Positions 22,451 through 25,241 of a DNA stretch of 64,000 bases are shown here, in pieces. The number at the start of each line of letters is the position of its first letter. Positions within the stretch are counted from its first letter, which is position 1. A program made the translations under genes and the position numbers. The notes under the pieces are model-generated. The model was not told where the DNA came from. It saw only the letters and a list, made by a program, of their open reading frames with translations, and searched no databases. The stretch lies in NCBI RefSeq assembly GCF_057098645.1, contig NZ_CM169472.1; one strand, 5' to 3'.

Positions 22451-22728
22451 TATCCCCTTTCCCACAAGCAATTAATCAAAATTCCCAAAGCTGCGGGATT
22501 GTACTGCCTGGCGCAGAGGATTCAATGAGCGAAAAAAGGGATCTAGTCACTTATTGTAACTAAATACTTCTTAAATAATTAAACGCCGAAAAAATAAACA
22601 CAGCTTACCGATACACACAAAAATAATAATAAGTGCAGTTATCATCGCAAAAGAGATTACTGTCACTTTCACATATTTCTGAGTTACCGTATTCTCATGG
22701 TTTCTTTTTATTTATAAGGAATACCCCT

Positions 22729-23154
22729 GTGCGACAACGGACTATTGTATGCCCTTTGATTCAAAATGATGGTGCTTATTTGCTGTGTAAAATGGCCGAC
22801 GATCGCGGCGTTTTCCCCGGTCAATGGGCGCTTTCGGGTGGCGGCGTGGAGCCCGGCGAACGAATTGAAGAGGCACTACGCCGCGAAATTCGCGAAGAAC
22901 TGGGAGAACAGCTGCTTTTGACAGAAATCACGCCGTGGACCTTCAGCGATGATATTCGCACCAAGACGTATGCAGATGGTCGCAAGGAAGAGATTTATAT
23001 GATTTACCTGATTTTTGACTGCGTTTCTGCCAACCGAGAAGTGAAAATAAACGAAGAGTTTCAGGACTACGCGTGGGTAAAACCTGAAGATCTGGTGCAT
23101 TATGATTTGAATGTTGCCACCCGAAAAACGTTACGTTTGAAAGGTCTTCTTTAA
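22729..23154 (+). CDS. nudI: Nudix-family nucleoside triphosphatase NudI
   Basis: GTG start at 22729 gives (M)[59 protein letters not shown]... with Nudix box; 141 aa. Confidence 0.85.
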
Positions 23155-23192
23155 CAATGATGACAGCCATCACTGGCTGTCAGATTGAAAAT

Positions 23193-23795
23193 TTAGTGGT
23201 TAACGAATTCCCCATCCAGATAAACTTTGCCTTTTTCCACATGCATGACTAAACCATCCAGATAATCAGGTTTAAATGTCGCATCACGCTTATCTTTAGC
23301 AATATATGTCAGGCAATGATTATGGGTAAAAATAACGATATTTTTATCAGGTGCTTTTCTTTGTAAGTCTTTAATTGCACTATAAATCTCATTACCGCAT
23401 TGAAGAAGTCGTTTATCTACCGTCAGCTTTTTACCCGCTGAAAACCAGGTCGCCGACTGAATGGTCCGGACGGTATTACTGGAATAAAGATCGAAATCAG
23501 GGATATCAGCGCTAAAAGCGTTGCCCAGTTCACGGGCATCCTGGGTACCTTTAACCGTAATACCTGTTTTATCTGACAAGCATTGATTGGTTGAACGATC
23601 GCAACGTTCAGCATGGCGAAACAAAACGACAACCGGGTGCTGCTGCGCCAGTCTGGCCAATGTTTTATTGTCGATACGTGGCAAACCATTGCTACTCCAG
23701 GCGGCATGAGTACCCAGTCCGGCAATTGCAGCGAGCGCCAGTAAAATGATGAAATATTTTTTTGACTTCAATGATGAGCGGCAAAAAGCTAACAC
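23193..23795 (-). CDS. ais: Aluminium-inducible LPS core heptose(II)-phosphate phosphatase (histidine phosphatase family)
   Basis: GTG start (complement of 23793-23795) gives (M)[38 protein letters not shown]...RHAER...; 200 aa. Confidence 0.85.
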
Positions 23796-23985
23796 GTAAA
23801 CTCCACCTATAGACAAGCGCAACCAGACAATTACCGTGAAATTGAGCGACATTTCTGGCGATAATTAGCAGTTGGTGTAATATTAAAATCCTACGATGTC
23901 GGCAAAATGCCTCAAAATTTTGCCAAATGCAAAGCCTAAATAAGAAAAAATATAAAAATTTCAATATTTACGTCTAATATTAGTT

Positions 23986-24002
23986 TCTTAAGGTTAAGTT
24001 AA
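23986..24002 (+). promoter_or_regulatory. PmrA (BasR) box CTTAAG-GTTAA-GTTAAT upstream of arnB
   Basis: Direct-repeat half-sites matching YTTAAK-N5-YTTAAK about 80-100 bp upstream of the arnB start; arn operon is a known PmrA target. Confidence 0.7.
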
Positions 24003-24101
24003 TATTCTATCCTTAAAATTTCGATCCAAATGGCAAAATATACACAACACTCTTTATAGCAAATATAAGTGGACAGGTATTCAATGGCGGAAGGAAAAGC
24101 A

Positions 24102-25241
24102 ATGTCAGAATTTTTGCCTTTTTCGCGACCAGCAATGGGCGTGGAGGAACTCGCTGCAGTTAAAGAGGTTCTCGAATCTGGTTGGATCACAACCGGTCCG
24201 AAGAATCACGCGCTTGAACAAGCCTTTTGCCAGTTGACGGGAAATCAGCATGCCATCGCGGTCAGTTCAGCCACCGCCGGAATGCATATCACGCTAATGG
24301 CGTTGGAAATTGGCAAGGGTGATGAAGTGATTACGCCTTCCCTGACCTGGGTTTCAACCCTCAATATGATTTCCTTGTTGGGTGCAACGCCGGTAATGGT
24401 GGATGTCGACCGCGATACGCTGATGGTCACGCCTGAAGCTATCGAGTCAGCCATTACGCCACGCACTAAAGCCATCATTCCGGTGCATTATGCCGGTGCG
24501 CCAGCAGATATTGACGCCATTCGCGCCATTGGCGAACGTTACGGCATCGCAGTTATCGAAGATGCAGCCCATGCCGTCGGTACGTATTACAAAGGGCGAC
24601 ATATTGGCGCAAAAGGTACCGCTATTTTTTCGTTTCACGCCATCAAAAATATTACCTGTGCGGAAGGTGGCCTGATTGTTACTGATAATGAAAACCTTGC
24701 CCGCCAGCTACGGATGCTGAAATTTCACGGTCTGGGTGTCGATGCCTATGACAGACAAACCTGGGGCCGTGCACCGCAGGCTGAAGTCTTAACGCCGGGC
24801 TATAAGTACAATCTGACCGATATTAACGCCGCGATTGCCATGACACAGTTAGCCAAATTAGAGCACCTCAACACCCGTCGGCGCGAAATTGCCCAGCAAT
24901 ATCAGCAAGCACTGGCAGCTCTCCCCTTTCAGCCATTAAGCCTTCCCGCCTGGCCGCACGTTCACGCCTGGCATCTGTTTATTATTCGTGTCGATGAACA
25001 ACGTTGTGGTATCAGTCGCGATGCGTTGATGGAAGCGTTAAAAGAAAGAGGTATTGGTACCGGGTTACATTTCCGCGCCGCTCACACACAAAAATATTAT
25101 CGCGAGCGTTTTCCCACGCTGTCGTTACCGAATACCGAATGGAATAGCGAACGCATCTGTTCGTTGCCGCTGTTCCCGGATATGACTACCGCCGATGCCG
25201 ACCGCGTCATCACAGCCCTTCAGCAACTCGCAGGACAATAA
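24102..25241 (+). CDS. arnB: UDP-4-amino-4-deoxy-L-arabinose--oxoglutarate aminotransferase
   Basis: [44 protein letters not shown]... (DegT/ArnB PLP fold); start 24102 chosen for the GGAAGGA SD; in-frame alternatives at 24084 and 24069. Confidence 0.93.

Follow-up and report, generated by a model that had tools for sequence, protein, structure and literature searches.

The PmrA box has been defined experimentally as CTTAAG-N5-XTTAAT, two directly repeated hexamers with 5 bp between them (PMC3973317), and in E. coli both pmrG (ais) and pbgP (arnB) are activated by PmrA (PMC3140997). For the pbgP box of Klebsiella pneumoniae a footprint has been reported (PMC2565834), and its box1, CTTAATATTATCCTAAG, was used both in the PmrA-DNA crystal structure (PMC3973317) and in the cryoEM complex of PmrA with RNA polymerase (PMC10570014). 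In the cryoEM activation complex the box overlaps or replaces the -35 element of the promoter (PMC10570014). Klebsiella box1 resembles the E. coli site in that the two hexamers of the direct repeat, 5 bp apart, replace the -35 element and are followed 10 bp downstream by the signature TAnnnT. It differs in lying about 170 bp from the start codon, in a half-site 2 that reads CCTAAG, and in having no adjacent ais. Klebsiella pbgP also has an extra PhoP-dependent proximal promoter (PMC2565834), which E. coli arnB lacks.

The same geometry is found with another regulator. The pho box at pstS, a class II-type site of the OmpR/PhoB family that is bound by PhoB, spans -41 to -25, as does the arnB box (PMC10570014). 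Both are direct repeats with an 11-bp periodicity, and both lie 10 bp upstream of the -10 element, although the regulator and the recognition sequence differ between PhoB at pstS and PmrA at arnB.

Here we analysed the intergenic region between ais and arnB in a 64-kb stretch of DNA, referred to as the window. This region is the E. coli orthologue of the pmrG-pbgP (pmrH) region of Salmonella enterica, whose box reads CTTAATGTTAATTTAAT. The two species share the gene order nudI, pmrG/ais, arnB, and their boxes are orthologous in position, each lying 115 bp from the conserved ATG of arnB. They are also alike in the arrangement of box, 10 bp, and TAnnnT, in the conserved -10 and -35 blocks of ais, in the GTG start of ais/pmrG, and in an in-frame upstream arnB ATG that would give MAEGK(M/A). 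They differ in the first base of half-site 2 (G in E. coli, T in Salmonella), in the start codon of nudI (GTG in E. coli, ATG in Salmonella), and in the spacing between box and ais promoter, which has 10 bp less in Salmonella. Of the two species, only E. coli has the Shine-Dalgarno (SD)-like AGGU before the upstream arnB ATG. Our analysis makes it likely that the ais-arnB spacer holds two divergent, activator-dependent sigma-70 promoters sharing one PmrA box, and that ArnB is translated mainly from the ATG at 24102, with a minor start at 24084 possible.

Locus and gene layout

The window is E. coli chromosomal DNA with 99.9% identity to the O145 strain RM9872, and a sequence search matched region 23100-24400 in 5,418 of 5,426 complete E. 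coli genomes. Converting the RefSeq annotation of RM9872 to window coordinates gave the gene order nudI, ais, arnB, arnC (Table 1). A preliminary description of this DNA, made from the sequence alone, had assigned the genes and their starts in agreement with the RefSeq annotation of the near-identical RM9872 and of K-12. The divergent spacer between ais and arnB covers 23796-24101, which is 306 bp at 33% GC.

ArnB is a PLP-dependent aminotransferase of the DegT/DnrJ/EryC1 family that matches the solved Salmonella ArnB (1MDO) over its whole length (E = 1.6e-216), and Pfam PF01041 is recorded on the Salmonella orthologue. Ais/PmrG belongs to the histidine phosphatase family, PF00300 being precomputed on Ais homologues, and is about 66% identical to Salmonella PmrG, which is encoded at the same locus with conserved synteny. 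Based on this family assignment and orthology, Ais is a predicted LPS core heptose(II)-phosphate phosphatase. The nudI and ais genes converge, and the 38 bp that separate them contain a perfect 8-bp hairpin at 23162-23181, GACAGCCA-tcac-TGGCTGTC, which is followed by a U-tract on neither strand.

Table 1 Positions of genes, promoter elements, and candidate start sites, in window coordinates.
Feature	Position	Strand	Details
nudI CDS	22729..23154	+	RefSeq annotation; GTG start
ais (pmrG) CDS	23193..23795	-	RefSeq annotation; GTG start 23795-23793
ais Shine-Dalgarno GGTGGAG	23801..23807	-	5 nt before GTG; -5.9 kcal/mol; conserved in Escherichia
ais TSS	23897	-	K-12 primary TSS 2365723 (-), PMC12987492 Table 1; mapped via NC_000913.3 (L083)
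ais -10 hexamer CATTTT	23904..23909	-	ends 7 nt upstream of TSS
ais -35-like hexamer TTGCAT	23927..23932	-	17-nt spacer to -10; block conserved in alignments
PmrA/BasR box CTTAAGGTTAAGTTAAT	23987-24003	+	CTTAAG-GTTAA-GTTAAT; sole occurrence in window
Box half-site 1 CTTAAG	23987-23992	+	followed by 5-bp spacer
Box half-site 2 GTTAAT	23998-24003	+	
arnB -10 hexamer TAAAAT	24014..24019	+	exactly 10 bp downstream of box
arnB TSS	24028	+	K-12 primary TSS 2365854 (+), PMC12987492 Table 1; mapped via NC_000913.3 (L083)
GTG, first in-frame arnB candidate	24069..24071	+	no SD, +1.3 kcal/mol
ATG, upstream arnB candidate	24084..24086	+	385-aa form with six-residue extension MAEGKA; SD-like AGGU 24075-24078
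arnB Shine-Dalgarno AAGGA for ATG 24102	24091..24095	+	6-nt spacing; -5.7 kcal/mol
arnB CDS	24102..25241	+	379 aa plus stop; PGAP annotation; conserved ATG
arnC	from 25245		RefSeq annotation of RM9872

The PmrA box and the arnB promoter

The preliminary description had recognized a 17-mer in the spacer as the PmrA direct-repeat box and placed it at 23986-24002. The sequence is indeed present, once, and its true position is one base to the right, at 23987-24003. How much weight such a match can bear depends on the pattern used. Against the loose consensus YTTAAK-N5-YTTAAK the box has one mismatch, and the window contains 7 matches with at most one mismatch where 2.96 are expected. When the 33% GC spacer was shuffled, a loose-consensus match arose on the + strand in 4.7% of shuffles (P = 0.047), and P was about 0.05-0.16 across the spacer shuffles for this consensus. 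The loose consensus alone is therefore weak evidence for a PmrA box, and these figures would be compatible with a fortuitous match in AT-rich intergenic DNA that plays no part in regulation. A box-like match at 22559-22575 in the yfaZ-nudI spacer was rejected as chance since it is not conserved in Salmonella. For the box between ais and arnB, on the other hand, the strict pattern CTTAAG-N5-XTTAAT is matched perfectly, and this is the only match in 64 kb, with 0.03 expected.

Conservation was assessed with 80 arnB loci from other Enterobacterales, one Salmonella locus, and further ais loci. When Escherichia, Salmonella, and Citrobacter were aligned, no other near-invariant block of the spacer was as long or as well conserved as the box, whose flanks diverge. 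T24014, A24015, and T24019, which form the TAnnnT signature of the arnB -10 hexamer, are invariant. The preliminary description had also put the box at the expected distance from arnB. The distance from box to start codon varies from 115 to 446 bp across arnB loci, so the meaningful distance is that from the box to the -10 element. By that measure the expectation is borne out: the window box lies exactly 10 bp from the -10, and of the 64 arnB loci with a recognizable box, which come from many genera, 60 have TAnnnT downstream of it at exactly this distance.

The position of the TSS relative to the box had been proposed as a check on the assignment. With the published K-12 arnB TSS at 24028, the box occupies -41 to -25, which is consistent with its proposed role. 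Given this agreement with an experimental TSS, the exact strict match, the near-invariant conservation, and the fixed 10 bp to the -10 element, we give practically no credence to a chance origin of the box. The match to the PmrA direct repeat was thus correctly identified, and the exact half-sites, the geometry of a -35 replacement, and the conservation at orthologous positions together mark the arnB promoter, on sequence grounds, as a predicted PmrA-activated promoter.

The arnB TSS lies 9 nt after the -10 hexamer, at the long end of the usual range, and leaves a 5' UTR of 74 nt up to ATG 24102. In a re-analysis of K-12 dRNA-seq data, the TSSs of arnB and ais were found only under antibiotic treatments, together with that of ugd (PMC12987492 Table 1), another gene with a pmra-box promoter (PMC12987492). 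A generic sigma-70 scan returned two weak sites only, neither of them at the real arnB or ais promoter; because it missed both, we regard the scan as uninformative. An Rfam search of 23600-24300 found no RNA family.

An additional feature of the transcript is an ATG 2 nt downstream of the arnB TSS, which opens a 9-codon mini-ORF, MAKYTQHSL*, at 24030-24059 (+). The AAATG at the TSS is kept in Escherichia, Salmonella, and Citrobacter, and the length of the mini-ORF varies from 2 to 9 codons, as in the Citrobacter example ATG AAA TAA. This could be a near-leaderless start-stop element, or merely a conserved initiation region.

The ais promoter and the probably shared box

The -10 hexamer of ais lies within the block AAAATGC, which is invariant in an alignment of 13 genomes. 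CATTTT is a weak -10 of the activator-requiring kind. Upstream of it, TTGC(A/T/C)T at 17-nt spacing was found in 11 of 14 genomes, and the E. coli TTGCAT also falls in a block that 13 genomes conserve. A search of the whole spacer with up to 2 mismatches allowed found no second PmrA box that could serve ais. Apart from the box itself, it matched only ATTAAC-N5-CTTAAG, which is this box read in reverse, as its self-complementary TTAA cores permit.

All 14 of the ais-bearing genomes examined keep the box upstream of ais, including 4 that have no arn operon beside it (one Escherichia lineage, Intestinirhabdus alba, C. rodentium, and a C. freundii-like genome). Citrobacter species without ais still carry the box with arnB, and so both ais-only and arnB-only genomes retain it. 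Box and ais -10 element are 94 bp apart in eight genomes, 84 bp in four, 73 bp in one, and 81 bp in one, C. tructae. The 94, 84, and 73 bp classes, which make up 13 of the 14 genomes, differ by whole helical turns, with C. tructae the sole out-of-phase case; this helical-phase argument draws on two or three independent indel events only. Relative to the ais TSS at 23897 the box centre is at approximately -98, and across the spacing classes it falls at -98, -88, or -77. A position of -98 is unusually distant for an activator, so activation of ais may require additional factors or bending of the DNA. On the absence of a second box, the retention of the box in genomes without arn, and spacings that change by whole helical turns, one box probably serves both the arnB and the ais promoters.

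It could also be that the box acts on arnB only, with ais induced through a separate unrecognized site or indirectly, and with the observed spacing due to coincidence or shared ancestry. Such an arrangement would fit the separation of box centre and ais TSS, which at about 98 bp is long for direct activation, the spacing, which has changed independently only two or three times with one genome out of phase, and the TTTAAG half-site that most species have in the ais promoter spacer, where E. coli has TTTGAG. Against it speak the arn-less Intestinirhabdus, C. rodentium, and C. freundii-like genomes, in which the box is kept upstream of ais with 0-1 mismatches and its surroundings have diverged. 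The spacer also contains no further full box that could act on ais, and the ais and arnB TSSs co-occur under the same treatments. We consider an arnB-only box unlikely overall, if still a reading to be reckoned with, and favour the box shared by both promoters.

Several other features of this spacer are recorded here as observations. An E. coli 8-mer, GGCAAAAT, is present in three copies in two orientations (23901-23924 and 24031-24039). Two of them are direct copies 131 bp apart, which is also the distance between the arnB and ais TSSs. The inverted repeat GGCAAAAT-N8-ATTTTGCC at 23901-23924 overlaps the ais -10 element and the promoter spacer; it is not conserved outside E. coli, and we give it no reading. 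The ais/arnB spacer has been listed as one of the “promoter islands” of E. coli, in which promoter-like sites are densely clustered and which have been discussed with regard to H-NS complex formation (PMC3661553).

Rearrangements of the region in related genomes

The region has been rearranged in several of the genomes compared. In E. coli MB06232 (locus L098, 788-1510, corresponding to approximately 22500-24092 of the window), an IS1A has taken the place of nudI, ais, and the entire promoter region between ais and arnB. The insertion element ends 9 nt before the equivalent of ATG 24102, so that neither the box nor the upstream ATG is left, yet the annotation still gives an intact arnB. In the Escherichia lineage GCA_051324285.1 (L088, 774-1200) the arn operon has been recently deleted and the order is menE-pmrD-ais. 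The box and the arnB promoter have survived, along with the 5' UTR and some 90 nt from the degraded 5' end of the arnB coding sequence, and now point into pmrD in the antisense direction.

In Intestinirhabdus alba, C. rodentium, and the C. freundii-like genome (L090, L092, and L093) the box is followed by TAnnnT at 10 bp, facing away from ais. The gene divergent from ais in C. tructae (L091, 1-1200) is not arnB; it encodes a 486-aa PMT/ArnT-like glycosyltransferase (PF02366) and is preceded by the same box and by a CCAAATG motif. In C. amalonaticus (L008, approximately 2290-2490), about 210 bp are inserted between the arnB promoter and the ribosome-binding site, and the box is shifted by the insertion to -327 from the arnB start codon.

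GTG starts of ais and nudI

Translation starts were compared using SD strength, computed as the energy of the anti-SD duplex, and the 5' UTR was folded to give the probability that each position is unpaired. The GTG start that the preliminary description had proposed for ais is annotated by RefSeq in every E. coli record examined, is preceded by an SD (Table 1), and serves as the start in 12 of 14 genomes. The N-terminus that follows from it, V/M-L-A/P/V-F/L, is conserved and reads as a signal peptide. An upstream in-frame ATG at 23852 was rejected as the ais start, as it has no SD and is absent in sister species. In the window strain the ais reading frame is open up to this ATG, which would give 219 aa; K-12 has a closing TAG after it. 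Some database entries for Ais are 219- or 222-aa forms (P0004 and P0010). The 203-aa Ais of some E. coli results from an internal ARL tandem duplication and not from another start.

A GTG start had likewise been proposed for nudI, and it is the one annotated by RefSeq. An AAGGA lies 8 nt upstream of GTG 22729, with a duplex energy of -6.2 kcal/mol, and Salmonella nudI has an ATG at the identical position, followed by the same N-terminus.

The start codon of arnB

The three in-frame arnB candidates named in the preliminary description, GTG 24069, ATG 24084, and ATG 24102, are all present. The first is unsupported. GTG 24069 has no SD, its mean unpaired probability in the folded 5' UTR is 0.05, meaning that it is predicted to be paired, and it aligned to no start in the other species. 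The two ATGs both lie downstream of the TSS at 24028, on the same mRNA, and each has a usable SD (-5.2 and -5.7 kcal/mol). The AGGU of ATG 24084 is 5 nt upstream of it and reaches -5.2 kcal/mol. The statement that only 24102 has a good SD is thus right in ranking 24102 first, at -5.7 kcal/mol, and overstated in the contrast that it draws with 24084.

The preference for ATG 24102 held up on comparison, with the caveats discussed below. The N-terminus that follows from it, M-S/x-D/E-F-L-P-F-S-R-P, is conserved in about 80 Enterobacterales species, and an AAGGA-like motif is found upstream of the arnB start in most of 80 species. PGAP places the ArnB start at this ATG in all seven of the PGAP-annotated E. 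coli records examined, MB06232 included. The caveats are that the curated K-12 record uses the equivalent of ATG 24084, giving the 385-aa NP_416756.6 in NC_000913.3, and that ribosome profiling with tetracycline (TetRP) was scored on manual inspection as “4. multiple” sites for arnB (PMC4909307, Table S3). ATG 24084 is therefore a real, documented ambiguity. The K-12 annotation itself has moved from the upstream ATG in 2006 to the downstream ATG in 2014, and the TetRP algorithm called “no change” from the 2006 annotation (PMC4909307, Table S3). The crystal structures of Salmonella ArnB are of the 385-aa form; these proteins are recombinant, so the structures are silent on the native start. An N-terminal peptide of ArnB was not found in the published N-terminomics supplements searched, and arnB is unmentioned in the Mg-starvation Ribo-RET paper.

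If ATG 24084 were the principal native start in E. coli, ArnB would have 385 aa and ATG 24102 would be an internal Met codon. The curated K-12 record, the 2006 annotation with its “no change” call (PMC4909307), the AGGU at -5.2 kcal/mol, and the in-frame ATG of Escherichia, Salmonella, and some Citrobacter all speak for such a start. Its distribution and variability do not. An in-frame ATG equivalent to 24084 is found only in Escherichia, Salmonella, and a few Citrobacter, and in most species it is absent or out of frame. Most Citrobacter have a 1-nt insertion that results in ATG GCT TGA, as seen in the C. freundii group, and Citrobacter Awk4 has ACG in place of the ATG. The SD-like AGGU is missing outside Escherichia; both Salmonella and Citrobacter have lost it. 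The six codons before ATG 24102 (24084-24101) are polymorphic in E. coli: about 4,100 genomes encode exactly MAEGKA, and about 970-986 of the 5,426 (about 18%) have MTDGKK instead. These two versions are separated by three non-synonymous changes in five codons, in a protein whose remainder is highly conserved. In 13 complete E. coli genomes a 1-nt deletion, leaving a shorter A-run, shifts the frame of the upstream ATG away from that of arnB, and these genomes too are annotated with an intact arnB. The 2014 K-12 annotation and PGAP also both use 24102. In view of this evidence we judge it improbable that ATG 24084 is the principal start.

We conclude that ArnB is probably translated mainly from ATG 24102, with ATG 24084 as a minor start at most. 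As the six-residue extension is restricted to one clade, variable, and out of frame in some strains, it looks dispensable. The conserved ATGGC(G/T)GAAGGAAA makes more sense as the region where ribosomes bind for ATG 24102.

A model for the divergent control region

In the proposed model, the PmrB sensor responds to Fe3+, Al3+, or mild acid, or else phosphorylated PmrA is protected by PmrD (PMC2565834). PmrA-P would then bind 23987-24003 as a head-to-tail dimer and bend the DNA (PMC3973317, PMC10570014). With the box standing in for the -35 element, RNA polymerase would be recruited to TAAAAT, and the arnBCADTEF transcript would start at 24028. The box, the -10 element, and the TSS of arnB are in place for this step, and the contacts between PmrA and RNA polymerase would, by homology, be those of the Klebsiella cryoEM complex. 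The same bound dimer may stimulate the weak ais promoter (TTGCAT, 17 nt, CATTTT) from approximately 100 bp away on the same helical face. Judging from conservation and spacing, distal activation of ais by the box is the most likely arrangement. Translation would begin at GTG for ais and nudI, and mainly at ATG 24102, behind AAGGA, for ArnB. A minor fraction of ArnB may come from ATG 24084 and would carry the dispensable six-residue extension.

A bolder version of this model is also possible, though we put it forward tentatively and with some doubt. Here the quasi-palindromic box would be bidirectional, a -35 replacement for arnB and a phase-locked distal site for ais, and would be kept with whichever gene remains. 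This version would also include two ArnB proteoforms and a near-leaderless mini-ORF on the arnB transcript.

The ais-arnB control region is already known, and the accepted picture of it is unchanged by our analysis. What is added here are refinements only, namely the 10-bp rule between box and -10 element, the finding that arn-less genomes keep the box, and counts of the variants of the upstream ATG across E. coli genomes. The comparison adds support for control of both divergent genes by one box. For ArnB, reference annotations still disagree on the start, with 385 aa in the curated K-12 record and 379 aa in PGAP. Both the arn operon and ais act in lipopolysaccharide modification and are the basis of chromosomal resistance to polymyxin and colistin, and accurate promoter and start maps of this region therefore matter for reporter design, resistance prediction, and structural work.
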